Positions 34,421 to 47,833 of a stretch of DNA of 64,000 bases are shown here, in pieces. The stretch is from a bacterium (lineage in GTDB: Bacteria; Hydrothermota; Tepidihabitantia; Tepidihabitantales; Tepidihabitantaceae), in contig JBAMLV010000022.1 of assembly GCA_039793395.1 (NCBI GenBank), positions 2,897-66,896 of the forward strand. Reading direction: 5' to 3'. Each line of letters opens with the position of its first letter. Position 1 is the first letter of the stretch. Both the position numbers and the translations under genes were made by a program. The notes below the pieces were generated by a model. That model saw only the letters and a program-made list of their open reading frames with translations, was not told the DNA's origin and searched no databases.

Positions 34421-34813
34421 ATGAATTCAGCGGCGAACTCCTCCCTGGTTTCCCGAATTGAGGAATTGAGCGGGCAGCGGGTGCTGGACTGTTATCAGTG
34501 CGGGTGCTGTACTGCTGGCTGTCCGATTGGCGAGTTGATGGACCCCGCGCCGAGTAAGGCAATCCGGCTGTTGCAGCTGGGACGGGCAGAAGAGTTGCTG
34601 GCAAGTGAAGGTATCTGGTTGTGTGCCAGTTGTCTGGTGTGCGGGACGAGGTGTCCGCGGAATGTTGATTATGCAAAGATTGCCGAGGCATGCCGGGCAA
34701 TTGTCCTGCGGGCAAAGCGGAGTGTGGTTGACCCGGACCGGGTCAGCCCTGAGCAGTTGCAGGATATACCCCAGCAGGCATTCATTGCCAGTTTCCGGAA
34801 GTTTTCGGTATGA
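34421..34813 (+). CDS. hdrC: Heterodisulfide reductase subunit C (HdrC-like, 2x[4Fe-4S])
   Basis: CYQCGCCTAGCP and CASCLVCGTRCP motifs; 130 aa from ATG 34421. The ORF-track start at 34241 precedes the predicted promoter. Confidence 0.85.
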   Translation: MNSAANSSLVSRIEELSGQRVLDCYQCGCCTAGCPIGELMDPAPSKAIRLLQLGRAEELLASEGIWLCASCLVCGTRCPRNVDYAKIAEACRAIVLRAKRSVVDPDRVSPEQLQDIPQQAFIASFRKFSV

Positions 34814-35673
34814 AGTATCCTTATTATCCTGGCTGTACGCTCTATTCCAAGGCGAGAAATCTTGACCAGTGTGCCCGGAAAGCCGCGCTCCGTGCCGGTT
34901 TTGAACTGGAGGAGATGCCATCCTGGAACTGTTGCGGTGCCATTTACAATACCAATACCGATGACCTGGCGGCGCAGGTTGGACCGGTGCGCAATCTGGC
35001 AAAGGCAAGTCAACTGGGCGAGCGGCTGGTGACGCTGTGTGCCGCCTGTTATAATGTGCTGAAGCGGGCAAGTGAGCACCTGCAGGCAACCGGTTTTGAA
35101 GCGGACCGGCAGCGACTTTTGGATTTTGTTGATGAGCCGTTGATCCGGGATGTGGAGGTGGTGCATTATCTACAGGTGTTGAAGGAGCTGGGCTGGGAAG
35201 GGCTGCGGGCAAAGGTGGCCAAGCCGCTGAACGGGTTGAAGATTGCCTCCTATTACGGCTGTCTGATGGTGCGGCCAAAGGAGGTGTTGAAGTTTGATGA
35301 CCCGGAAAATCCAATGGTGATGGATGAGCTGGTGGCGGCGCTGGGCGGAACACCGGTGCGGTTTGATTTCAAGAGCGAGTGCTGCGGCGGCTATCTCGTG
35401 GTCAATCATCAGGCGGTGGCTGATGCCTGTTCGCTGCGGGTGGTGGAGAATGCCCGGACCTGGGGCGCAGAACTGGTGGTGACCACCTGTCCACTGTGTC
35501 AGTATAATCTGGAGATGGCTCAGCGGCGCCGGTCTTCCGGGAATCAGTTAGTGCCGGTGCTTTATTTTACTCAGGTGCTGGGACTGGCACTGGGTCTGGC
35601 AGAAGCGGAGTTGGGGTTTGATGATAACCGGCTGGACCCGCGCCCGTTTCTTTTGACCAGGGGGTTGCTGTAA
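34810..35673 (+). CDS. hdrB: Heterodisulfide reductase subunit B (two CCG domains)
   Basis: Two CCG-domain signatures: SWNCCGA...LCAACYN and SECCGGY...TCPLCQYN. ATGA overlap with hdrC. Confidence 0.9.
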   Translation: MKYPYYPGCTLYSKARNLDQCARKAALRAGFELEEMPSWNCCGAIYNTNTDDLAAQVGPVRNLAKASQLGERLVTLCAACYNVLKRASEHLQATGFEADRQRLLDFVDEPLIRDVEVVHYLQVLKELGWEGLRAKVAKPLNGLKIASYYGCLMVRPKEVLKFDDPENPMVMDELVAALGGTPVRFDFKSECCGGYLVVNHQAVADACSLRVVENARTWGAELVVTTCPLCQYNLEMAQRRRSSGNQLVPVLYFTQVLGLALGLAEAELGFDDNRLDPRPFLLTRGLL

Positions 35674-35675
35674 AG

Positions 35676-37619
35676 ATGGCACGGTCGCGGGTCGGGGTTT
35701 TTGTCTGTCACTGCGGGATTAACATTGCGGGTGTGGTCCGGGTGCCGGAGCTGGTGGAGCGGGTAAAGACAATTCCCGGGGTGGTGAGTGCGCTGGATTA
35801 TGTTTACTGCTGTTCCGACCCGGGGCAGCAACTGATTAAGCAGACGATTAAGGACAAGGGGCTGGACGGAGTGGTGGTGGCGTGCTGTTCGCCGAATCTG
35901 CACGAGGCGACCTTCCGGAAGGCAGCGGCTGAAGCGGGGTTGAATCCGTATCGGTGTGAGATTGCCAACATCCGGGAGCAGTGTTCCTGGGTAACTGCGG
36001 ACCGGGATGCGGCAACCGAGAAGGCGGAAGGGATTGTCCGGACGATGGTGGCAAAGGTGCGGGAGGATGTACCGCTTTTCCGGTTGCAAGTGCCGCTGGT
36101 CAAGCGGGCGCTGGTGGTGGGTGCGGGTATTGCCGGGATTCAGGCGGCACTGGACATTGCCAATGCGGGTTATGAGGTGGTTTTGGTGGAGAAGGAGCCG
36201 TCAATCGGTGGGCATATGGCGCAGCTTTCCGAGACCTTTCCGACGCTTGACTGTTCCCAGTGCATTCTGACTCCAAAGACGGTTGAAGCGGGCAATCACC
36301 CGCGGATTAAACTCCTGACCTATTCCGAGGTGCTGGAGGTTTCGGGGTTCATCGGCAATTTCCGGGTGAAAATCCGGCAGAAGCCACGTTATGTTGATCT
36401 TGATGCCTGCACCGGCTGCGGTATCTGTCTGGAAAAGTGTCCGGTCAGGGTGGAGTCCGGGTTTGACCGCAATCTGACCCGGCGCCGGGCAATCTACCGG
36501 CTGTTTCCCCAGGCGGTACCGAATAAGGTGGTGATTGATGCCGAGCACTGCCGGCAGTTGCAGGGCAAGAGGTGCGGGGTTTGTGAGCGGGTTTGTCCGG
36601 CGCAGGCGATTCGGTATGAAGATACCGGGCGGATTATTGAGGAGGAGGTGGGGGCGATTGTGCTGGCGACCGGCTATGAGCTGTTTGACATTTCCCGGGT
36701 TGGTTCCTATGGGGCAGGGGTGGTGCCGGATGTGATTGACAGTCTGGCGTTTGAAAGGATTCTTTCGGCATCGGGTCCGTTTGCGGGTGAGGTGCGCCGG
36801 CCTTCGGACGGCAGAGTTCCGAAGCGGGTGGTTTTTGTGCAGTGCGCCGGCTCCCGGGACGCAAATCAGGGGGTGCCCTACTGCTCAAAAATCTGCTGTA
36901 TGTATACCGCGAAGCATGCCCTGCTTTACAAGCACCGGGTGCATGATGGTGAGGCAATTGTCTGTTATATTGATGTCCGGACTCCGGGCAAGGGTTTTGA
37001 GGAGTTCTATCGCCGGGCAACCGATGAAGGGGTTAAATACCTGCGGGGTAAGGTTGCCAAGATTTTCCGGCGCGCCGACCGGGTGGTGGTCTGGGCAGCG
37101 GATACGCTGGCGGGTAAAAAGATTGAGATTGAGGCTGATATGGTGGTCCTGGCAAGTGCGGTAATTCCCAATCCGAAGGGGGTGGAGCTGGCACGGCGGT
37201 TGAAGATTGCTCTTGATGCCCATGGCTTTCAGTCGGAGGCACATCCGAAGCTGCGGCCGGTTGAGACTTTGACCGCGGGCTTCTTTCTTGCCGGCTGTGG
37301 TCAGGGACCGAAGGACATTCCGGAGACGGTGGCACAGGCTTCAGGTGCGGCGGCAAAGGTGCTGGCGATGTTCGGTACGAGTGAGCTGTATCATGAACCG
37401 GTGATTGCCGAGGTGGATGAGGAGGTTTGCGTTGGCTGTGGTAATTGCGAGCGGAGCTGCGCCTATGAGGCGGTGAAGGTTGATGTCCGGCGCGGTAAGG
37501 CGGTGGTGCAGGCGGTGATGTGTGAAGGGTGTGGTGCATGTTCGGTTGCCTGTCCGGCCGGGGCAATTAACCTCAAGAATTTTACCAAGCGGGCGCTGAT
37601 TGAGATGGTGGATGTGTGA
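35676..37619 (+). CDS. hdrA: Heterodisulfide reductase subunit A (canonical-length HdrA flavoprotein)
   Basis: N-terminal VFVCHCGINIAG domain, FAD fold VVGAGIAGIQAALDIA, TFPTLDCSQCILTPK, an inserted ferredoxin (CTGCGICLEKCP) and a C-terminal 2x[4Fe-4S] domain (CVGCGNCERSC, CEGCGACSVACP). Confidence 0.9.
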   Translation: MARSRVGVFVCHCGINIAGVVRVPELVERVKTIPGVVSALDYVYCCSDPGQQLIKQTIKDKGLDGVVVACCSPNLHEATFRKAAAEAGLNPYRCEIANIREQCSWVTADRDAATEKAEGIVRTMVAKVREDVPLFRLQVPLVKRALVVGAGIAGIQAALDIANAGYEVVLVEKEPSIGGHMAQLSETFPTLDCSQCILTPKTVEAGNHPRIKLLTYSEVLEVSGFIGNFRVKIRQKPRYVDLDACTGCGICLEKCPVRVESGFDRNLTRRRAIYRLFPQAVPNKVVIDAEHCRQLQGKRCGVCERVCPAQAIRYEDTGRIIEEEVGAIVLATGYELFDISRVGSYGAGVVPDVIDSLAFERILSASGPFAGEVRRPSDGRVPKRVVFVQCAGSRDANQGVPYCSKICCMYTAKHALLYKHRVHDGEAIVCYIDVRTPGKGFEEFYRRATDEGVKYLRGKVAKIFRRADRVVVWAADTLAGKKIEIEADMVVLASAVIPNPKGVELARRLKIALDAHGFQSEAHPKLRPVETLTAGFFLAGCGQGPKDIPETVAQASGAAAKVLAMFGTSELYHEPVIAEVDEEVCVGCGNCERSCAYEAVKVDVRRGKAVVQAVMCEGCGACSVACPAGAINLKNFTKRALIEMVDV

Positions 37620-37632
37620 GGGGAAGCGGGAG

Positions 37633-40600
37633 ATGGGCGATAATGGCAATCTGAATTCGGCGGTTCCGGTGACGGAAGCCAGGGTCGGGGCGGTGCTGGT
37701 GGTCGGTGCCGGCATTGCCGGGATACAGTCGGCACTGGAACTGGCAGAGTCCGGGTTCAAGGTTTATCTTATGGATTCGGCACCCGCGATTGGCGGGGTG
37801 ATGGCGATGCTGGACAAGACCTTTCCGACGAATGACTGCTCAATGTGTATTTTGAGCCCGAAACTGGTCGGCACGGGCCGGCATCCGAATATTGAACTGC
37901 TCAACGGCGCGGAGCTGCTCGGTCTGGAAGGGGAGCCGGGCAACTTCACCGCCCGGGTCCGGCAGCGGCCCAGGTATGTGTTGCTGGAGAAGTGCACCGG
38001 TTGTATGGACTGCACCAAGGTGTGTCCGGTCCGGGTGCCGGATAGTTACAATCAGGGGCTTGCTATGCGGGGTGCGGTTTACAAGCTTTTTGCCCAGGCA
38101 ATTCCGAATGCAGTGGCAATTGACAAGAATGAACGCCGGGCACCGTGCCGGCTTGCCTGTCCGGCAGAGGTGAATGCCCAGGGTTATATTGCCCTGACCC
38201 GCGCCGGTAAGTTCAAGGAGGCTTATCAACTGGTGCGCGAGCGCCTGCCGTTTGTGGGTGTGTGCGGCCGGGTGTGCCATCATCCCTGCGAGGAGAATTG
38301 CAACCGCCGGAAGTTTGATGCCGAGAGTCCGGTTGCCATCAGGACAATCAAGCGGTTTCTTGCCGATTATGTGGCAAAACAGGGCGGACTGCCGTATTCG
38401 GTGCCGGAAAGGCAGGGGGAGAGTGCGGCGCGGGTGGCAGTTATCGGTGCCGGACCAGCAGGCTTGACCTGTGCGCTGGATTTGCGGCTGAAGGGTTATG
38501 AGGTGACGGTTTTTGAGGCGGCAGAGCAGCCGGGCGGAATGATGCGCTGGGGTATCCCAGCTTACCGGCTGCCCCGGGCGGTGCTGGACCAGGAGATTAA
38601 GGATATTCTTGATACCGGTATTGAACTGAAGTTGAACTCGCCCATTAATGACCCGGCCGAACTCAAGCGTCTGCTGGCGCAGGGGTATCGGGCAGTTTTT
38701 ATTGCCATCGGTGCCAGCCGGAGCCGGACCTTGAACATTCCGGGGATGGAGTTGAAGGGGGTGCTGCACGGCATTGAGTTTCTCCGGGAGGTAAATCGCG
38801 GGGCAGTGCCGGCAATCGGCAGGCGGGTGGTGGTTATTGGCGGTGGTAATGTGGCGGTGGATGTAGCGATGTGTGCGCGGCGGTGCGGTGCCGAAGCGGT
38901 GACGATGGTCTGTCTGGAAAAACGGGATGAGATGCCTGCCCATCCGTGGGAGATTGAGGAGGCGCTCGCCGAGGGAATAAAAATAATGCCCGGCTGGGGT
39001 CCGGCCGCAATCCGGGGTGAGGATGGTGCGGTTGCCGGACTTGAGACCATAGAGTGCACGAGCGTTTTTGATGAGCAGCACCGGTTCAATCCCCAATTCA
39101 ATCCGGATAACCGGGGCTTTGTCCCGGCAGAGACGGTAATTCTGGCAATCGGTCAGCAGGTGGCTTTACCCTTTGCTTCGTTCCAGGTTGACCCGGTGAC
39201 CCTGGAGGTAAAGGGAATGCCCGGGGTGTTTGCCGGCGGTGATATGGTGTCCGGTCCCGCTTCGGTGATTGAGGCGGTTCAGGCTGGCCATGAAGCGGCA
39301 ATTTCCATTGACCGGTTCATCCGGAAAGAGGATTTGAGCGCCGGCAGGCAAAAGCCAAAACCGGAACCGGCACGGCTTGAGGATTCTGCTGGTTATCGCA
39401 TCGGTATCAAACCCCAGGCGCGGACAAAGGAGCCGGTGCTGAACCCGGAGCAACGGCAGAACTGGGATGAGCTGAATTTAGGTTTTGATGAAGAGCAGGC
39501 ACAGGCTGAAGCCCAGCGGTGTCTGGATTGCGGTATCTGCTCGGAATGTTTTCAGTGTGTGAGTGCGTGTGAAGCCCGGGCAATTGACCACCAGCAGCAG
39601 GAAAGGCAGCTGGAACTGAAGGTGGGGGCGGTTATTCTTGCTGGCGGGTTTAGCGAGCACAAGCCGGTTGCCGATGTCAGTCTCGGTTATGCTCAACACC
39701 CGAACATCGTTACCAGTCTGGAGTTTGAGCGGATTCTTTCGGCAACCGGTCCTTATGAAGGCCAGGTGCGCCGGCCGTCAGATTTAACTCCGCCGAAGAA
39801 GGTCGCCTGGGTGCAGTGTGTCGGTTCCCGGAATCAGGAGCATTATTACTGCTCATCGGTCTGCTGTATGTTTGCGGTCAAGGAGGCGGTCATCGCCAAG
39901 GAGCACTGCGGTGGGGAGCTGGATTGTCACATCTACTATCTGGATATGCGCTGTTTTGGCAAGGGTTTTGAACGGTATTATGAACGGGCAAAAAATGAGT
40001 ATGGGGTGGTGTTCCGGCGTTCGCGGGTGAGTGCAATCCGGGCAGTGCCGGAAACCGGCGACCTCTTGATTGCGTATGAGGATGAGCAGGGCGTGCTACA
40101 TGATGAGGTTTACAATCTGGTGGTGCTGTCCAGTGCCCTGGTGGCAAATCCGGAGATGGTGGCGCTGTGTGAGCGGCTGGGAGTCAAAGTTGACCCTCAG
40201 GGGTTTGTCCAGACCTCAGCTCTTTATCCGGTGGCGACCTCCCGGGCTGGAGTTTTTGCCTGTGGTGTGCTGACCGAGCCCAAGGATATTCCGGAAACGG
40301 TCACCGAAGCAACCGGCTGCGCCGGTGCGGTTGCCGGACTTTTGAGCACCGTCCGAAATACGCTGGTGAGCAGGAAGAGTTATCCGCGGGAGCGGGATGT
40401 TACGGAAGAAGAGCCGCGGGTCGGAGTTTTTGTGTGCAACTGCGGTATCAACATCGGCGGGGTGGTGCGCGTGCCCGAAGTGGTGGAGTATGCCCGAACC
40501 CTGCCCGGGGTGGTTTATGCCGAAGAAAATCTGTTCACCTGCTCGCAGGATACCCAGGAGAAAATCAAGCGGATTATTCAGGAGCAGCGGTTGAACCGGG

Positions 40601-42117
40601 TGGTGGTTGCCTCCTGCACTCCGCGGACCCATGAGCCGCTATTTCAGGAGACGCTGGCGGAAGCGGGTTTGAACCGGCACCTGTTTACGATGGCAAATAT
40701 CCGGGACCAGTGTTCCTGGGTTCATATGCATCTGCCCCAGGAGGCGACCGCGAAAGCCAAGGAGCTGGTGCGGATGGCGGTTGCCAATGCCCGGCACCTG
40801 AAACCGCTTACCGCTGCTCAATCGCCGGTGGTGCAGAAGGCGCTGGTGGTCGGGGGTGGCATTGCCGGAATGACCGCCGCACTGGCAATTGCGGAGCAGG
40901 GGTTTGAGGTGTTTTTGGTGGAAAGGGAAAAGGAACTGGGTGGTAATCTGCGCCGGGTGCGATATGATGAGGCGGGAAATCGGACCGCGGATATTGTTGC
41001 GCGGCTGGAAAACCGGCTGCGTTCCCATCCGAAAGTCAGGATTCTGACCGGTGCGGAAATCAGTGCGGTCAGCGGTTATGTGGGCAATTATCGGACCACG
41101 GTCCGGTTTACAGGCGCTGAGCGGTCACCGGAAGAGACTTTAGAGCACGGTGTTTTTGTGGTGGCGGTTGGGGCAAGGGAGTATGTGCCTAAAGAATATT
41201 TCTATGGTGAAGACAGCCGGGTTTTGACCCAGCTGGAGCTGGAAAATCTGATTGAAACCCAGCCCGATTTTCTTGCCCGGACTGCCGGGACCGCGGGTGC
41301 AAATAAACCGTCCAGCCCGACAGTGGTGATGATTCAGTGCGTCGGGTCAAGGAATGAGGAGCATCCCTGGTGCTCCCGGGTTTGTTGCACTGAGGCGGTT
41401 AAGAATGCACTCCGGCTGAAGAAGGAGTATCCGAATGTTCAGGTGTATATTTTTTACCGGGATATGCGCACCTACGGGTTCCGGGAAGGACTTTATCGCG
41501 AAGCCCGGCGTGCCGGGGTGCTATTTATTCATTATGAGCCCGGGGAATTGAAGGTTGAACGCCGGGACGGGAAAATTTTGGTTTCCGGTTATGACCCGGT
41601 GCTGGCAGGCCGGGTGGGGGTGGTAGCCGATTATCTGGTGCTTTCAACCGGCATCGTGCCCGCGGAGTCCAATCCGCAACTGGCGAAACTGCTCAAGGTG
41701 CCGTTGAATGAGGACGGTTTCTTTCTGGAAGCACATATGAAATTGAGGCCGGTGGATTTTAACACCGCCGGGATTTTTATGGCTGGCACCGCTCACAGCC
41801 CCCGTTTTATTTCCGAGACCATTGCGCAGGCACTGGCAGCCGCGGCACGCGCGGGTTCACTTATCAGTTCAACCCGGATTATGACTTCCGCGGTGGTGGC
41901 ACGGGTGAATACCCGCTGGTGTGCAGGTTGCGGTGTGTGTGAGCGGGTGTGTCAGTATGAGGCGGTTCGGCTCAACCCGGAAACCGGTAAATCAGAAGTT
42001 ACCGCGGTTTTGTGCCAGGGGTGCGGTGCCTGTGCTGCCGCCTGTCCCGCCGGTGCAATTGAGCTGGCGGGGTTTGAATCCCGGCAACTGCTTTCAATCG
42101 TGGAGGAGGCGTTGTAA
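37633..42117 (+). CDS. Giant HdrA-type fusion: HdrA core with a nested GltD/NfnB-like NAD(P)H module, followed by a second HdrA-like module (large-HdrA, HdrL-like architecture)
   Basis: Module 1 has VGAGIAGIQSALELA, TFPTNDCSMCILSPK and CTGCMDCTKVCP. The nested GltD-like block has CGRVCHHPCEENC, VAVIGAGPAGLTCALDL and VVVIGGGNVAVDVA. The HdrA core then resumes (LEFERILSATGPYEGQVRRPSD, CSSVCCMFAVKEAV). Module 2 has VFVCNCGINIGG and VVGGGIAGMTAALAIA, with C-terminal CAGCGVCERVC and CQGCGACAAACP. ATG 37633 is preferred. Confidence 0.8.
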   Translation: MGDNGNLNSAVPVTEARVGAVLVVGAGIAGIQSALELAESGFKVYLMDSAPAIGGVMAMLDKTFPTNDCSMCILSPKLVGTGRHPNIELLNGAELLGLEGEPGNFTARVRQRPRYVLLEKCTGCMDCTKVCPVRVPDSYNQGLAMRGAVYKLFAQAIPNAVAIDKNERRAPCRLACPAEVNAQGYIALTRAGKFKEAYQLVRERLPFVGVCGRVCHHPCEENCNRRKFDAESPVAIRTIKRFLADYVAKQGGLPYSVPERQGESAARVAVIGAGPAGLTCALDLRLKGYEVTVFEAAEQPGGMMRWGIPAYRLPRAVLDQEIKDILDTGIELKLNSPINDPAELKRLLAQGYRAVFIAIGASRSRTLNIPGMELKGVLHGIEFLREVNRGAVPAIGRRVVVIGGGNVAVDVAMCARRCGAEAVTMVCLEKRDEMPAHPWEIEEALAEGIKIMPGWGPAAIRGEDGAVAGLETIECTSVFDEQHRFNPQFNPDNRGFVPAETVILAIGQQVALPFASFQVDPVTLEVKGMPGVFAGGDMVSGPASVIEAVQAGHEAAISIDRFIRKEDLSAGRQKPKPEPARLEDSAGYRIGIKPQARTKEPVLNPEQRQNWDELNLGFDEEQAQAEAQRCLDCGICSECFQCVSACEARAIDHQQQERQLELKVGAVILAGGFSEHKPVADVSLGYAQHPNIVTSLEFERILSATGPYEGQVRRPSDLTPPKKVAWVQCVGSRNQEHYYCSSVCCMFAVKEAVIAKEHCGGELDCHIYYLDMRCFGKGFERYYERAKNEYGVVFRRSRVSAIRAVPETGDLLIAYEDEQGVLHDEVYNLVVLSSALVANPEMVALCERLGVKVDPQGFVQTSALYPVATSRAGVFACGVLTEPKDIPETVTEATGCAGAVAGLLSTVRNTLVSRKSYPRERDVTEEEPRVGVFVCNCGINIGGVVRVPEVVEYARTLPGVVYAEENLFTCSQDTQEKIKRIIQEQRLNRVVVASCTPRTHEPLFQETLAEAGLNRHLFTMANIRDQCSWVHMHLPQEATAKAKELVRMAVANARHLKPLTAAQSPVVQKALVVGGGIAGMTAALAIAEQGFEVFLVEREKELGGNLRRVRYDEAGNRTADIVARLENRLRSHPKVRILTGAEISAVSGYVGNYRTTVRFTGAERSPEETLEHGVFVVAVGAREYVPKEYFYGEDSRVLTQLELENLIETQPDFLARTAGTAGANKPSSPTVVMIQCVGSRNEEHPWCSRVCCTEAVKNALRLKKEYPNVQVYIFYRDMRTYGFREGLYREARRAGVLFIHYEPGELKVERRDGKILVSGYDPVLAGRVGVVADYLVLSTGIVPAESNPQLAKLLKVPLNEDGFFLEAHMKLRPVDFNTAGIFMAGTAHSPRFISETIAQALAAAARAGSLISSTRIMTSAVVARVNTRWCAGCGVCERVCQYEAVRLNPETGKSEVTAVLCQGCGACAAACPAGAIELAGFESRQLLSIVEEAL
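38128..39516 (+). other. GltD/NfnB-like (glutamate synthase small-subunit-type) domain inserted within the inserted-ferredoxin domain of HdrA module 1
   Basis: Boundaries come from aligning the 1494-aa protein by eye with its 1007-aa paralogue. Similarity stops after ...AIPNAVAIDK and resumes at RCLDCGICSECFQCVSACEARAIDH. Confidence 0.65.
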
Positions 42118-42536
42118 TGAGTTTTGAACCGAAAATAGTCGGATTTCTCTGCAACTGGTGTACCTATGCGGGTGCAGACCTGGCAGGGACATCAAGAATT
42201 CAATATCCACCAAATATGAGGCCCATCCGGGTGATGTGCTCTGGAGCGGTCGATTCGGTTTATATCCTGCGGGCACTGCTTGAGGGCGCGGATGGAGTGT
42301 TCATCGGTGGCTGTCATCCCGGTGACTGCCATTATGTATCCGGCAATTACAAAACCCGGCGCCGGATGGTGCTGTTCAACTCCATTATGCGGTCGCTGGG
42401 CCTGGATGAAGGCCGGGTGCTAGTGCGCTGGATTTCAGCGGCTGAAGGCAAGAAGTTTGCCGATACGGTAACCGAGCTGACCGAGCGGCTCAGACAGCTG
42501 GGACCGAGTCCATTCCGCCATCTCTGGGAGGTGTGA
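42117..42536 (+). CDS. mvhD: MvhD/FlpD-type [2Fe-2S] electron-transfer subunit
   Basis: FLCNWCTYAGADLAG, CSGAVD and GCHPGDCHY motifs; 139 aa. TAATG overlap with the upstream gene. Confidence 0.85.
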   Translation: MSFEPKIVGFLCNWCTYAGADLAGTSRIQYPPNMRPIRVMCSGAVDSVYILRALLEGADGVFIGGCHPGDCHYVSGNYKTRRRMVLFNSIMRSLGLDEGRVLVRWISAAEGKKFADTVTELTERLRQLGPSPFRHLWEV

Positions 42537-42537
42537 T

Positions 42538-43677
42538 TTGGCAGCGAGCGTATTCATTAAAGTTCTAACAGATAATCCGCAGCAGACATTGCGCGGGATT
42601 TATGCCCGGTGGCTGAAAACCGGCGAACTATCGGCACTGCTGGTGCCGGCAGTTTCGGCGACCGGGGTTGCGGCACCGGTGCTTTTTTCCGACCCGGAAA
42701 AGGTGGCAATGGTCAGTCCACTGCTGCCGGTAATGGCGGTCAACAGTGCATCAATTGTTGCGGAGATTGCGGCCGAGCGGGCAACCGAAACCCGGGTGGG
42801 GGTGGTGTTGCGTCCCTGTGAAATGCGGGCGGTGGTGGAGTTGATTAAACTGCAGCAGATCGTCCGGGAAAATCTGGTGCTGATCGGGATTGACTGTCCG
42901 GGGACATACCTGCCGGCGGTGCTCGGTCCGGAGCTGGTTGAGGACCGTGGTAAACTGGATGAATGGGTGATTGAGTTCGTTAGCGGTCAGGACCGCTATT
43001 TTGAGGATGAACGGTTGCGCAGTGCCTGCCAGATGTGTGAATTTCCAACATCGCTGGTTGCCGACCTGAAAATCGGGTTTTTAGGGTTGAATGTAAGGGA
43101 AAGGCTGCTTTTGAGTCCGGTTTCTGAAGCCGGGAGCCGGCTGGTTGCGGGACTGGAAACTGAACCGGCAGCGGAGAATATTCCGGAGCGGAGTGGCTAT
43201 CTGGACCGGTTTGTGCAGTCCCGGAAAAGCCGGGCGGAACAGCGGATTGCCGATTTTGACCGGGTCGGTCTGGGACCGGAGAATCTGGTCCGTTATTTTG
43301 CCCGCTGTCTTAACTGTCATAACTGTATGAAGGTTTGTCCGGTCTGTTATTGCCGGGAGTGTTTCTTTGAATCGGATGTGTTCCAGCGAGAGCAGGATGA
43401 ATATGTCCGGCGGTCAAAAAGGAAAGGGCTTAACCGGATGCCGGCCGGAACGCTTTTGTTTCATCTGACGCGAATGAATCATATGATGACCTCCTGCGTC
43501 CAGTGCGGGATTTGTGAGGATTCCTGTCCAGCAGGAATCGGTTTGAGTGTGCTGTTCAAGAAGGTTGCCCGCAATGCCCAGGCGGCATTTGATTATCTTT
43601 CCGGTCGGTCGCTTGATGAGCCGTTGCCACTCACTACCTTCCGGGAGGATGAGTTCCGGGAAATTGGCGAGGAGTAG
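42538..43677 (+). CDS. Fe-S protein with a 2x[4Fe-4S]-like C-terminal region; the N-terminal domain is possibly FrhB/FdhB-like
   Basis: C-terminal CLNCHNCMKVCPVCYCRECFFE and CVQCGICEDSCPAG. The N-terminal VLRPCEMRAVVELIKLQ ... LIGIDCPGTY pattern is reminiscent of FrhB/FdhB-family proteins, but that assignment is not secure. TTG start with GGAGG 6 nt upstream. Confidence 0.45.
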   Translation: MAASVFIKVLTDNPQQTLRGIYARWLKTGELSALLVPAVSATGVAAPVLFSDPEKVAMVSPLLPVMAVNSASIVAEIAAERATETRVGVVLRPCEMRAVVELIKLQQIVRENLVLIGIDCPGTYLPAVLGPELVEDRGKLDEWVIEFVSGQDRYFEDERLRSACQMCEFPTSLVADLKIGFLGLNVRERLLLSPVSEAGSRLVAGLETEPAAENIPERSGYLDRFVQSRKSRAEQRIADFDRVGLGPENLVRYFARCLNCHNCMKVCPVCYCRECFFESDVFQREQDEYVRRSKRKGLNRMPAGTLLFHLTRMNHMMTSCVQCGICEDSCPAGIGLSVLFKKVARNAQAAFDYLSGRSLDEPLPLTTFREDEFREIGEE

Positions 43678-43683
43678 CGCCCA

Positions 43684-44343
43684 ATGGCAGAACTGCTGTT
43701 AAATGAACTGGACACGAGTTTTAAGTACCGGATTGCGGAACGGATGGGCGATGACAGTTTTCTCAACTGCTTTGCCTGCGGTTCCTGCACCGCCTCCTGT
43801 CCGGTGCGCCGGCTGGAGGGAAAATATAATCCGCGCCGGCTGATCCGGATGGCAATCTTGGGGATGAAGGATGAGGTGTATAAATCGGAATTTCTCTGGC
43901 TCTGTTCCTACCATTCTACCTGTCTTTACCGCTGTCCGCAGAAGGTGAACATCGGCGCGGTCAGCGATGCGGTGAGCCGGCTCAAGCAGCAGGCGGGCAA
44001 AAGTGGCTGGCCCGATGGTATCAGCACCGAGTTCCGCCGGGCGGTGGTGCGTGAGGTTCCCGGAGTAAGCGCCTGTTTTGTCTGTGGTTCCTGCACCGCG
44101 GTTTGTCCGGAAAGTTTTCTTGACCCGGCAAATGACCCGCGGAAATTTATCCGTAAGGTCAATCTCGGGCTGGCAAGGGCGGCGCTCAGCGATGAGTTCA
44201 AGGATATCTGTGCCACTCATTTCCGGTGTGAAAGCCGGTGCCCCCAGGGGGTTAAAATCAGCCGGGTGATGCAGGTCCTGCGCGAGCTGGCACTGGAAGA
44301 TGGTTATTCATTGCCGGAATCAATCCGGTTTCTCCGGGAATAG
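43684..44343 (+). CDS. Tandem (duplicated) HdrC-like Fe-S protein with a Cys-to-His variant second motif
   Basis: Two HdrC-like halves: CFACGSCTASCP + CSYHSTCLYRCP, and CFVCGSCTAVCP + CATHFRCESRCP. No adjacent CCG-domain partner. Confidence 0.7.
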   Translation: MAELLLNELDTSFKYRIAERMGDDSFLNCFACGSCTASCPVRRLEGKYNPRRLIRMAILGMKDEVYKSEFLWLCSYHSTCLYRCPQKVNIGAVSDAVSRLKQQAGKSGWPDGISTEFRRAVVREVPGVSACFVCGSCTAVCPESFLDPANDPRKFIRKVNLGLARAALSDEFKDICATHFRCESRCPQGVKISRVMQVLRELALEDGYSLPESIRFLRE

Positions 44344-44345
44344 TT

Positions 44346-47300
44346 ATGGTGAATGAACCGCAGTTAAACGGTGTCCTCGTTATCGGGGGCGGAATCGGCG
44401 GGGTGCAGGCAGCACTGGATCTGGCTGAGGCGGGCAGGAAGGTTTATCTGGTAGAACGGGCACCCGCGATTGGCGGCTATATGGCGATGCTGGACAAAAC
44501 CTTTCCTACCAATGACTGCTCAATGTGTATCCTCAGTCCGAAACTGGTCAGCTGTGCCCGTCATCCGAACATTGAACTGCTGACGCTCAGCGAAGTGGTT
44601 GCCACCGCCGGCGAACCGGGCAACTTTTTGGTGAAAGTCCGGCGCTATGCCCGTTCGGTTGACCTTTCCCGGTGCACCGGCTGTGGTGACTGCCTGGAAA
44701 AGTGTCCGGTGAAAGTGCCCAGCGAGTTTGAGGGTGGACTGGCGCAGCGCCGGGCAATCTATCGTCTGTATGCCCAGGCTGTGCCCAATGCCCCCGTAAT
44801 TGACCGTCAGCACTGCCTTAAATTTACCAAGGACCGTTGTGGCAACTGTGCCCGGGTGTGCAAAGCCGGGGCGATTGATTACCGGCAGGATGATGAGGAG
44901 ATTGAAATCCGGGTCGGAGCAATCATTATTGCCGCCGGGAGCAAGATTTTTAACCCGGCGGTGCGGCCGGAGTTTGGCTATAAAAGGCTCGCCAATGTGG
45001 TGACCGCGCTGGAGTTTGAACGCATCCTCTCGGCATCCGGACCATACGGGGGCAGGGTCAAGCGGCCAGGAGACGGTGCGGAGCCGAAGAAGATCGCCTG
45101 GGTTCAGTGCTTCGGTTCCCGTGACGAGACAATTGGAAGCAGTTACTGCTCTTCGGTTTGCTGTATGTATGCCGCCAAGGAGGCGGTTATCGCCCGGGAG
45201 CACAATCCCGATATTGAGCCGACCGTTTTTTATATGGATATGCGTGCCTATGGCAAGGAGTTTGACCGTTATATTGAAAGGGCAGAAAGGCAATATGGGG
45301 TCCGGTTTGTGCGGGCACGGGTTGCTGAAATTCTGGAAGACCGGTTGACCGGCAGGCTGATTGTCCGTTATGCCGGTGATAATGGTCAACAGGCAGAAGG
45401 GTTTGACCTGGTGGTGCTTTCCTGTGGTCTGGTGCCAGAACCGGCGACCGGTTTGACCGTTGAACACAACCGGTTTGGTTTTCCACTGACCGACCTGATT
45501 GAACCGGTGAACGCTTCCCGGCGCGGGATATTTATCGCCGGCAGTTGTGCCCAACCGGTTGCCATTCCGGAAACCGTGACCGCGGCATCAGCAGCTGCGG
45601 TCAAGGCGCTGCCACTTACCGTTCCCGCGTCCCGGCGGTTCCAGCCAGAAGCAAGCCAAAAGGAAATCAATGTCGCCGGCATTGCCCCGCGAATCGGAGT
45701 TTTTGTCTGTAACTGCGGCATCAATATCGGCGGGGTGGTGCGTGTGCCCGAGGTGGTGGAGTATGCCCGGACCCTGCCCGGGGTGGTCTTTGTTGAGGAA
45801 AACCTTTATTCCTGTTCAGCTGATACTCTTGAGAAAATCAAGTCCCGGATAAAGGAACAAAACCTCAACCGGGTGGTGGTGGCTTCCTGTTCGCCGCGGA
45901 CCCATGAGCCGCTGTTTCAGGCAACCCTGAGCGAGGCGGGCTTGAATCCCCATCTGTTGGCGATGGCAAACATCCGGGACCAGTGTTCCTGGGTTCATCC
46001 GGACCGGGACCAGGCAACCGTCAAGGCAAAGGACCTGGTGAAAATGGCAGTGGCACGGGTTCGGCGTCAGCAGCCGCTGGCACCGGTCCGACTGCCGGTA
46101 ACCAAAGCCGGGCTGGTCGTGGGCGGCGGGATTGCCGGATTGGCAGCGGCGCGGGCGCTGGCAGATTCCGGGGTGGATGTTTTGCTGATCGAACGGGAAG
46201 CGGTGCTGGGTGGTGTGGCACGCCAGATTTACCGGACAATTGAAGGCGAAGATGTCCAGCAACGGCTGAACTCGTTGATTGAACAGGTTACCAATCATCC
46301 CCGAATCAGAGTTTATACCGGTGCCGAAATCAGAAGGGTTGACGGATTTGTCGGCTCGTTTGAGACCACGATTGCGGTCGCCGGCCGCGAAGAGCGATTT
46401 CGTCACGGGGTGGTGATTGTGGCGGTCGGAGCACAGTATCGCCAGCCAACAGAATATCAGTTTGGCAGTGACCCGCGGGTGCGGACCCAGCAGGAACTGG
46501 AAGAGATAATTGCCCGGCGGCCGGATGAGCTGCACAATCTCCACTCGGTGGTTATGATTCAATGTGTCGGCTCGCGTGAAGGGGAGCGGAACTACTGTTC
46601 GCGAATCTGTTGTGCCGAGGCGATTAAAAACGCCCTCGCCATTAAAAATCTGAACCCGGACTGTGAGGTATTCATTCTGTATCGGGATATCCGGACCTAT
46701 GGTTTCCGGGAGGAGTATTACCGTCAGGCAAGAGAACTGGGGGTGATATTTATCCGTTATGAAGTGGAGCGCAAACCGCAGGTGCAGGTGGCTGACAACG
46801 GTTTAACTGTGCAGGTTCACGAACCGGTGCTCGGACTTCCCCTGACACTCAAGCCGGACCTGCTGGTGCTTTCCACCGGCGTTGAGCCGCAGCCGGATGC
46901 CGAGCGGCTGGCACAAATGCTGAAGGTGCCACGGCAGCAGGATGGGTTCTTCCTTGAGGCGCACGCCAAGCTGCGGCCGGTTGATTTTGCCACCGAAGGT
47001 GTTTTTCTTGCCGGGCTGTGTCACTATCCTGAATTTATTGACGAGACCATCGCCTCGGCTCAAGCCGCGGCCGGTCGGGCTGCCACGGTGCTGGCACGGG
47101 ATTTTATTGAAGCCGAGCCCTATCAGGCGGTGGTTTCGCCTGAGCGCTGTTCCGCCTGCGGAATGTGTGCTGGATTATGTGCCTATCGGGCAATTGAAGT
47201 CCGGGTTGTTGAAGAGCGGACCGGGAAACGGGCAGCGGTGGTTAATCAGGCGATGTGTAAAGGGTGCGGCGCCTGTGCGGCAAACTGCCGGTCCGAAGCC

Positions 47301-47369
47301 ATTGACATCCGCGGGTTTGCCGCCGAAAATATCTGTCGGGAAATTGCCACGCTGTTCAGTGAATCTTAA
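44346..47369 (+). CDS. HdrA-HdrA tandem fusion flavoprotein (paralogue of the 1494-aa gene without the GltD insertion)
   Basis: Module 1 has VIGGGIGGVQAALDLA, TFPTNDCSMCILSPK, CTGCGDCLEKCP and CSSVCCMYAAKEAV. Module 2 has VFVCNCGINIGG, VVGGGIAGLAAARALA and CSRICCAEAIKNAL, with C-terminal CSACGMCAGLC and CKGCGACAANC. Confidence 0.8.
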   Translation: MVNEPQLNGVLVIGGGIGGVQAALDLAEAGRKVYLVERAPAIGGYMAMLDKTFPTNDCSMCILSPKLVSCARHPNIELLTLSEVVATAGEPGNFLVKVRRYARSVDLSRCTGCGDCLEKCPVKVPSEFEGGLAQRRAIYRLYAQAVPNAPVIDRQHCLKFTKDRCGNCARVCKAGAIDYRQDDEEIEIRVGAIIIAAGSKIFNPAVRPEFGYKRLANVVTALEFERILSASGPYGGRVKRPGDGAEPKKIAWVQCFGSRDETIGSSYCSSVCCMYAAKEAVIAREHNPDIEPTVFYMDMRAYGKEFDRYIERAERQYGVRFVRARVAEILEDRLTGRLIVRYAGDNGQQAEGFDLVVLSCGLVPEPATGLTVEHNRFGFPLTDLIEPVNASRRGIFIAGSCAQPVAIPETVTAASAAAVKALPLTVPASRRFQPEASQKEINVAGIAPRIGVFVCNCGINIGGVVRVPEVVEYARTLPGVVFVEENLYSCSADTLEKIKSRIKEQNLNRVVVASCSPRTHEPLFQATLSEAGLNPHLLAMANIRDQCSWVHPDRDQATVKAKDLVKMAVARVRRQQPLAPVRLPVTKAGLVVGGGIAGLAAARALADSGVDVLLIEREAVLGGVARQIYRTIEGEDVQQRLNSLIEQVTNHPRIRVYTGAEIRRVDGFVGSFETTIAVAGREERFRHGVVIVAVGAQYRQPTEYQFGSDPRVRTQQELEEIIARRPDELHNLHSVVMIQCVGSREGERNYCSRICCAEAIKNALAIKNLNPDCEVFILYRDIRTYGFREEYYRQARELGVIFIRYEVERKPQVQVADNGLTVQVHEPVLGLPLTLKPDLLVLSTGVEPQPDAERLAQMLKVPRQQDGFFLEAHAKLRPVDFATEGVFLAGLCHYPEFIDETIASAQAAAGRAATVLARDFIEAEPYQAVVSPERCSACGMCAGLCAYRAIEVRVVEERTGKRAAVVNQAMCKGCGACAANCRSEAIDIRGFAAENICREIATLFSES

Positions 47370-47392
47370 ACTACCGCCGGATTTATCCGGAA

Positions 47393-47833
47393 ATGGCGGA
47401 TAGTACCCGGAATCACCGTTACCGGCTGCGGGAACACACCGCCGACCTGAAGGTAGAAATTTATGGGCGGGATTTACCAGAGCTTTTTGTCAATGCCGCC
47501 TTCATGATTTTTGATGTGATGCTGGAGCTGGATCAAGTTGTTGAACAACAGGTGGAGACGGTGGAAATTAAATCGGCCGATTTGCCGGAATTGTTATTGG
47601 ACTGGCTCCGGGAACTGCTGTTTCTTTTTTCGGTGCGCGGTTTTGTCTGCCGGCAGGTGCGGATTTCGAGGCTGAGTTCCAAACCGGCAGAGCTGGAGGC
47701 GCTGCTTGCCGGCGAAACTTACGACCCCAAACGCCACGGGTTGAAAATTGAAATCAAGACACCGACCTATCATCAGTATGCGGTTGAAAGATTGCCCGAG
47801 GGCTACCGGGCGACGGTAGTATTTGATGTATAA
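47393..47833 (+). CDS. Archease
   Basis: YRLREHTADLKVEIYGRDLPELFVNAAFMIFDVM matches the archease N-terminal signature (EHTAD...G); 146 aa. Confidence 0.8.
   Translation: MADSTRNHRYRLREHTADLKVEIYGRDLPELFVNAAFMIFDVMLELDQVVEQQVETVEIKSADLPELLLDWLRELLFLFSVRGFVCRQVRISRLSSKPAELEALLAGETYDPKRHGLKIEIKTPTYHQYAVERLPEGYRATVVFDV

Follow-up and report, generated by a model that had tools for sequence, protein, structure and literature searches.

The DNA analysed here is a stretch of 64,000 nucleotides (nt) from contig JBAMLV010000022.1 of a Hydrothermota bacterium of the family Tepidihabitantaceae (hereafter referred to as the window), and the subject of this work is the pair of large HdrA-related fusion proteins that it encodes, of 1505 and 1007 amino acids (aa). 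Their genes lie in a single tight operon of eight genes on the + strand, between 34.4 and 47.4 kb, in which a canonical (type I) HdrA, a type II HdrA and an HdrL-type HdrA combining types II and III are encoded side by side (Table 1). Coordinates are positions in the window, and residue numbers refer to the 1007-aa protein unless otherwise stated. The ATG at 37633 is the probable start of the 1505-aa open reading frame (ORF), giving a protein of 1494 aa. An orthologue of this ORF (1484-1491 aa) is present in a relative (loci L081-L083) with an identical eight-gene order, in which the homologue of the 1007-aa protein is 73% identical to that of the window. The nearest named homologues (76% identity) are labelled candidate division WOR-3.

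Table 1. Genes of the operon and features of the two fused proteins, in window coordinates
Feature	Position	Strand	Evidence or use
hdrC	34421-34813	+	ORF and domain matches
hdrB, two CCG domains	34810-35673	+	ORF and domain matches
Canonical four-domain hdrA, 647 aa, TFPTLDCSQC	35676-37619	+	internal reference for alignments
1505-aa ORF, HdrL-type, two-unit HdrA with nested GltD/NfnB-like unit	37600-42117	+	ORF, domain matches, BLASTP, MAFFT
1505-aa protein, unit 1: TFPTNDCSMC	37819-37848	+	MAFFT, motif positions
1505-aa protein: GltD/NfnB-like NAD(P)H flavin unit (Fer4_20 and Pyr_redox_2), ORF aa ~186-635	38155-39504	+	domain matches, MAFFT
1505-aa protein, unit 2: N-terminal domain, TrxR2, C-terminal ferredoxin	40411-42114	+	BLASTP, MAFFT, motif positions
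mvhD (FlpD), 139 aa, directly 3' of the 1505-aa gene	42117-42536	+	domain matches
FrhB/FdhB-like Fe-S protein, 379 aa	42538-43677	+	domain matches
Tandem HdrC-like protein, 219 aa	43684-44343	+	domain matches
1007-aa fused double HdrA (type II, BamE-like), two FAD folds, Cys sets for seven [4Fe-4S] clusters	44346-47369	+	domain matches, MAFFT, homologues, AlphaFold2
1007-aa protein, unit 1 (aa 1-425): TrxR-like FAD domain 1	44346-45620	+	phmmer, BLASTP, MAFFT, Foldseek
Unit 1: TFPTNDCSMC (C58, C61)	44499-44528	+	MAFFT, motif positions
Unit 1: inserted ferredoxin, aa ~104-180	44655-44885	+	phmmer, BLASTP, MAFFT
Unit 1: QCFGSR...CSSVCCMYAAK, TrxR1 cluster ligands C255, C268, C272, C273, plus Y275 and K278	45105-45179	+	MAFFT, homologue alignments
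Variable inter-unit linker, aa 426-447 (22 aa)	45621-45686	+	zero invariant columns in family; pLDDT <50 at aa 431-436
Unit 2: N-terminal HdrA domain, aa 448-585, C455, C457, C490, C515, C547	45687-46100	+	phmmer, MAFFT
Unit 2: TrxR-like FAD domain, aa 586-922, without CxxC, inserted ferredoxin or SASGP stretch	46101-47111	+	MAFFT, homologue alignments
Unit 2: GGGIAG of the TrxR domain	46122-46139	+	motif positions
Unit 2: QCVGSR...CCAEAIK of the TrxR domain, E758 and K761	46560-46628	+	MAFFT, motif positions
Unit 2: C-terminal 2x[4Fe-4S] ferredoxin domain, eight invariant Cys	47112-47366	+	domain matches, phmmer, MAFFT

In phmmer comparisons with PDB sequences, residues 10-364 of the 1007-aa protein corresponded to positions 146-497 of M. 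thermolithotrophicus HdrA (5ODC), comprising the thioredoxin reductase (TrxR)-like domain with its inserted ferredoxin; residues 448-599 corresponded to positions 4-156, the N-terminal domain; and residues 826-1005 corresponded to positions 475-651, the last part of the TrxR domain followed by the C-terminal ferredoxin. BLASTP comparison with the 647-aa HdrA of the window yielded a domain map for both fusions that agreed with the phmmer map. In each chain the Rossmann start GxGxxG and the block QCxGSR...C..CC with its following Lys both occur twice, and the four domains that define canonical HdrA occur together in neither unit of either fusion. The first unit, as the initial annotation had described it, has the flavin adenine dinucleotide (FAD) fold, the TFPTNDCSMC motif and the inserted ferredoxin, and lacks the N- and C-terminal domains (phmmer, BLASTP and MAFFT), both of which are present in the 647-aa protein encoded from 35676 (MAFFT). 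The second units, which had been placed from ~40417 and ~45690, indeed begin there (VFVCNCG at nt 40426 and 45699); the MAFFT alignment shows that they open with the N-terminal domain (C(S/T)PRTHE, QCSW), end with the C-terminal 2x[4Fe-4S] domain and have an FAD domain devoid of both the CxxC motif and the inserted ferredoxin. The position of the CxxC motif is occupied by the Cys-free stretches RTIEGEDVQQ and YDEAGNRTAD in the two fusions. By alignment, C61 is the equivalent of Cys197 of HdrA and Cys62 of BamE, K278 that of K409 of HdrA and K280 of BamE, and E225 that of E356 of HdrA. The losses in the two units are complementary in both fusions, with the Cys197 equivalent confined to unit 1 and the N-terminal domain to unit 2.

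The kinship of the two units is visible only through HdrA and through the cross-comparison of the two fusions (36-37% identity), and no off-diagonal match was obtained at E<0.1 when the 1007-aa protein was compared with itself by BLASTP. NCBIfam lacks a dedicated model for fused HdrA, BamE or HdrL; only the HdrA/HdrA2 models matched, with scores below their cut-offs, as was likewise the case for the 647-aa HdrA, even though it has all four domains.

The 1505-aa protein has the same two-unit organisation. Its second unit contains the motifs CTPRTHE, QCSW, GGGIAG (at 40852), QCVGSR (at 41335) and CCTEAVK, followed by the C-terminal ferredoxin from ~41875, and its TrxR2 domain likewise has neither CxxC nor inserted ferredoxin. 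It differs in that the inserted ferredoxin of unit 1 is split, between its two cluster motifs, by a GltD/NfnB-like unit of ~450 aa (Fer4_20 and Pyr_redox_2 domain matches at aa 180-563 of the ORF; 547 bits for NCBIfam PRK12771). This nested unit together with an mvhD gene downstream (at 42117), the combination that marks HdrL or type III proteins, was found only for this fusion. Between the 1007-aa and 1505-aa proteins, the identity of corresponding units (50-61%; BLASTP) exceeds that of non-corresponding units, indicating that the fusion is older than the divergence of the two proteins and that the GltD insertion entered an already fused protein. The longer HdrL-type homologues (1328-1697 aa) have a single CxxC, in unit 1, and carry the N-terminal domain in unit 2. 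One protein (P0076, 1697 aa) has an N-terminal HdrA domain at aa 8 and another at aa 1156, in addition to the GltD insert, and is a variant in which unit 1 retains its N-terminal domain. The second cluster motif of the split ferredoxin in the window protein (ORF aa ~631-653, window 39490-39560) reads CLDCGICSECFQCVSAC, with two Cys more than the Cx7-8CxxCxxxC of the 647-aa HdrA and the 1007-aa protein.

The distribution of domains follows the electron routes of the canonical enzyme. In the HdrA homodimer, Cys197 of the partner protomer ligates the cluster of the N-terminal domain, and low-potential electrons cross this shared cluster to the inserted ferredoxin (summarised in PMC9012536). In the fusions, unit 1 keeps an FAD domain with its Cys-x2-Cys motif, the Glu/Lys pair, a [4Fe-4S] Cys set of its own and the two-cluster inserted ferredoxin; the N-terminal cluster domain and the two-cluster ferredoxin at the C-terminus come from unit 2. 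The domains retained constitute exactly one of the two electron routes of the homodimer and those deleted constitute its mirror route, which supports an asymmetric pseudo-dimer. All the domains and cofactor motifs of the fusions derive from HdrA (36-48% identity), but the twofold symmetry of the homodimer (5ODC) is broken, each accessory domain being present once per pseudo-dimer rather than twice.

The closest structural precedent is BamE, a subunit of the class II benzoyl-CoA reductase of Geobacter metallireducens, which a cryo-electron microscopy preprint reports to be a fused HdrA dimer located in a C2-dimeric core (10.64898/2026.04.10.717634). Both its TrxR domains bind FAD beside a [4Fe-4S] cluster, but the FAD of TrxR1 is the bifurcating flavin, with Lys280 and Cys59-Cys62 as hallmarks, whereas that of TrxR2, with Gln768, is non-bifurcating (same preprint). 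We used as its counterpart the BamE encoded in a metagenome-assembled genome of Geobacter (L046), within a bamBCDEFGH cluster that includes an AOR-type BamB, BamC, a NuoF-like BamH and a BamD with HdrC and CCG domains. BamF of this locus has an in-frame TGA at residue 19, coinciding without offset with the Sec19 of the BamF in the preprint, and C61/C64, K282 and Q770 of its BamE correspond to the published Cys59-Cys62, Lys280 and Gln768 with a constant offset of +2. Residues 4-1000 of the 1007-aa protein align end to end with residues 7-1013 of this BamE, at 47% identity, and the published residues map to C58/C61, K278 and E758. This identity, together with the fused dimer seen in BamE, supports the asymmetric pseudo-dimer. 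The two proteins have the same domain order (TrxR1 with CxxC and inserted ferredoxin, linker, N-terminal domain, TrxR2 and C-terminal ferredoxin), and share C58/C61, K278, the seven Cys sets and an MvhD-type partner in the cluster.

They differ in having Glu (window) or Gln768 (BamE) at the same position, one that Tyr occupies in unit 1 and in canonical HdrA. We rejected the idea that Gln768 substitutes for the flavin Lys, as it aligns with the second position beyond the CC pair, and BamE still has the Lys at CC+5; the L046 alignment shows that unit 2 of BamE keeps the Lys and Glu equivalent to K761 and E719. The partners also differ, with HdrBC, a tandem HdrC-like protein and an FrhB-like protein in the window and BamD and BamBC for BamE, and the MvhD of the window, unlike that of the Bam cluster, is short (139 aa) and free of selenocysteine. 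The operon was rejected as a class II benzoyl-CoA reductase: no BamB, BamC, BamG or BamH gene was found within the window by tblastn with the L046 proteins, which gave ferredoxin-motif matches only.

We assessed conservation in 79 close homologues of the 1007-aa protein and 80 cross-phylum homologues, with residue counts made over 81 homologues. More than 8000 relatives were recovered by word sharing, and relatives are encoded by at least 598 loci of species-representative genomes from many bacterial and archaeal phyla. The best 80 of these loci encode proteins that match the 1007-aa query end to end, at 45-55% identity, and originate from archaea (Bathyarchaeia, Thermoplasmata, Methanomassiliicoccales, Asgard archaea, Archaeoglobi and Methanoperedens) and from bacteria (Desulfobacterota, Chloroflexota, Nitrospirota, Bacillota and further groups). 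The two-unit architecture is invariant in both the close and the cross-phylum homologues, so the pattern is not due to chance, and the complementary loss of the Cys197 equivalent and the N-terminal domain was observed in all 81 sequences. The cluster Cys of unit 1, unit 2 and the N-terminal domain are also invariant.

The two flavin sites differ in the conservation of their other residues. C58, E225 and K278 of unit 1 are present in 81/81 homologues and Y275 in 76/81, and position 61 is Cys in 48 and an in-frame TGA, read as selenocysteine, in 33. In unit 2, E719 and K761 are each found in 54/81 homologues, position 758 is variable (His, Gln, Glu and others) and none of the 81 sequences has Cys at the positions equivalent to the CxxC. 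Selection is therefore strict on the first flavin site and loose on the second, which also supports the asymmetric pseudo-dimer. The domain losses described in the initial annotation were confirmed in every detail. In the second flavin domain, the CxxC is lost and E719 and K761 are conserved in only two thirds of the family, but the GxGxxG, the cluster Cys and the Lys/Glu pair are retained in the window proteins.

The in-frame TGA was found in the motif TFPTNDC(A/S)M*, at the Cys197 equivalent, in 33 of the 80 cross-phylum loci (including L012, L013, L015 and L018), most of them from Desulfobacterota; the window proteins have Cys at this position (nt 44526-44528). The TGA implies a putative selenocysteine at the residue bridging to the N-terminal cluster.

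AlphaFold2 modelling of the 1007-aa protein, with the alignment of 79 sequences, gave a mean predicted local distance difference test score (pLDDT) of 86.7 and a predicted template modelling score (pTM) of 0.89, indicating that the protein is predicted to fold as a single compact body with confidently placed parts. Besides the first three residues, confidence was low for aa 52-57, 431-436 (linker), 547-551 and 872-882. In Foldseek searches against the PDB, the model matched the TrxR and inserted-ferredoxin part of HdrA (8rvu_a and 8rwn_A; template modelling (TM) score 0.93, root-mean-square deviation 1.7 Å, 44% identity), a match read as the predicted unit 1, and the full HdrA chain 5odc_A (TM score 0.76, 37% identity over 655 columns), which was assigned to unit 2 because of its level of identity. 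The PDB sets searched with phmmer and Foldseek contain HdrA and not BamE. The single body and the HdrA matches, as features of a predicted model, are a further line of support for the asymmetric pseudo-dimer. Of the low-confidence stretches, aa 52-57 form the loop preceding the CxxC, aa 547-551 the QCSWVH loop and aa 872-882 the segment AHAKLRPVDF; the first of these is located at the CxxC pair and the second belongs to the domain of the N-terminal cluster (E3), and it is the separation of the CxxC pair from the E3 domain that differs between the two conformational states of BamE.

On this basis, it is likely that each of the two large proteins is a type II HdrA, fused and permuted, in which two HdrA-derived units jointly replace the HdrA homodimer and only one flavin bifurcates. 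The covalent asymmetric dimer with a single bifurcation-competent flavin originally put forward for these proteins is thus supported indirectly, by the complementarity of the electron routes, the comparison with BamE, residue conservation and the AlphaFold2 model. By homology to HdrA and BamE, electrons would enter through an MvhD-type adaptor and the C-terminal ferredoxin of unit 2 and would be bifurcated at the flavin of unit 1. The high-potential electron would pass through the cluster of unit 1 to an HdrC/HdrB-type partner, and the low-potential electron through the CxxC pair and the N-terminal cluster of unit 2 to the inserted ferredoxin of unit 1, the N-terminal cluster being completed by the Cys197 equivalent, as it is by the partner protomer in the homodimer. 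In the HdrL-type protein, the low-potential exit would additionally be wired to the nested GltD/NfnB-like NAD(P)H flavin unit.

Several observations weigh against this assignment of a single bifurcating flavin. Unit 2 of both fusions keeps the GxGxxG, the four cluster Cys and the equivalents of K409 and E356 (K761 and E719), with the Lys in CCAEAIK and CCTEAVK and the Glu in ELEEII and ELENLI in the 1007-aa and 1505-aa proteins, respectively; in this the window proteins are unlike a third of the family. Such retention of K409 and E356 has been taken as a sign that both domains of type II HdrA might bifurcate (PMC12054007). Furthermore, the mvhD gene of the window lies 3' of the 1505-aa gene, not of the 1007-aa gene. 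Because the FAD motif, the [4Fe-4S] Cys set and the Lys/Glu pair are retained, unit 2 of both proteins probably binds an FAD beside its cluster, judging from these motifs. On the preferred reading it is nevertheless not a bifurcation site, since it has no low-potential branch.

One possibility, which we regard as rather unlikely, is that in this lineage the flavin of unit 2 is redox-active and connected to the tandem HdrC-like protein, whose gene lies directly upstream, and that the canonical HdrA dimer joins the pseudo-dimers of the HdrL-type and 1007-aa proteins in one NAD(P)H-fed supercomplex with bifurcation modules in series. Such an assembly would parallel the way in which modules are coupled in class II benzoyl-CoA reductase. 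Slightly less probable still is the proposal, made for type II HdrA (PMC12054007), that both flavin domains bifurcate or confurcate, so that each polypeptide would catalyse two reactions of flavin-based electron bifurcation. It accords with the Lys, Glu and adjacent four-Cys cluster kept in unit 2 of the window proteins, but unit 2 has no CxxC and no inserted ferredoxin, and no N-terminal domain is provided by unit 1, leaving the second flavin without a low-potential branch. Moreover, unit 2 of BamE keeps the same Lys and Glu and yet its FAD is reported to be non-bifurcating, and these two residues lack the invariance of their unit-1 counterparts.

A pairing of unit 1 of one chain with unit 2 of another is very improbable. 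Intra- and inter-chain pairing would look identical in sequence, and BamE does lie in a C2-dimeric core, but according to the preprint the fused dimer of BamE is formed within a single subunit, AlphaFold2 gave a confident compact monomer (pTM 0.89) and every member of the family has the variable linker of 22 aa. Equally hard to accept is the notion that unit 2 is a cofactor-free scaffold that no longer binds FAD: its TrxR domain is the most diverged (36% identity to HdrA), and the SASGP stretch, CxxC loop and GK of YGKGF are missing from it, but all close homologues keep the GxGxxG, the GG motif and the acidic residue that follows beta-2, and unit 2 of BamE binds FAD.

The preferred reading, an asymmetric HdrA dimer hard-wired by fusion, is not a new idea. 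HdrL of Desulfobacterium autotrophicum was described in 2009 (Strittmatter, PMC2702500), and for the fused or tandem HdrA3/4, 5/6 and 12/13 of anaerobic methanotrophic (ANME) archaea, Chadwick et al. (2022) proposed that the fused protein serves as a heterodimeric partner to itself (PMC9012536). A survey of archaeal HdrA in 2025 used the names "type II" for such fusions and "type III" for those with the GltD insertion (PMC12054007), and the BamE structure followed in 2026. The fusions of the window are uncharacterised proteins of this already described kind, which is widespread in anaerobes. They share the complementarity of Cys197 and the N-terminal domain with the ANME fusions (type II HdrA, PMC12054007), but HdrA3/4 is reported to have the reversed order, its N-terminal unit carrying the N-terminal domain and lacking Cys197, and the archaeal ANME clusters include genes for FdhB and a molybdopterin protein, F420 being the donor proposed for them. 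HdrL (corresponding to type III, or the NfnB-inserted HdrA 9-11) and the 1505-aa protein are both large HdrA/glutamate-synthase fusions with mvhD as the next gene and a GltD/NfnB-like unit of ~450 aa inside the inserted ferredoxin, but the 1505-aa protein is free of selenocysteine. It combines the GltD insertion and the two-unit (type II) architecture in one chain, and is comparable in this to the 'A9-TRX-C' class.

No new principle is added, the concept having been published on both bioinformatic and structural grounds. Fused HdrA proteins are, however, among the commonest uncharacterised electron-bifurcation modules of anaerobes, and an asymmetric dimer with a single bifurcating flavin can guide annotators in counting bifurcation sites and drawing electron paths. 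With three HdrA types in one operon, the window provides a clean bacterial example and a convenient natural comparison set.

The gene neighbourhood is partly conserved. An mvhD gene adjoins the double-hdrA gene in 70 of the 80 cross-phylum loci, usually directly downstream, and an HdrC/HdrD-like gene was found in 44 and an FrhB-like gene in 14. The window shows the order double-hdrA, mvhD, frhB-like at the 1505-aa gene. The 1007-aa gene, which has no mvhD of its own, is preceded by the tandem HdrC-like gene and followed by an archease gene (region of 47369-47400); its product may draw on the one MvhD of the window or on a different adaptor. The FrhB/FdhB-like and tandem HdrC-like proteins are likely partners of the 1007-aa protein. 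In the 14 distant loci concerned, including those of Desulfosudis oleivorans (L013) and Methanoperedens (L032), the FrhB/FdhB-like gene directly follows mvhD, a recurrence that suggests a conserved putative electron-input subunit. The tandem HdrC-like gene ends 3 nt before the fused double-HdrA gene, an arrangement conserved in L081-L083, and similar matches were found in about nine distant loci; with an HdrC pair encoded beside an HdrA pair, each half may dock on one TrxR cluster.

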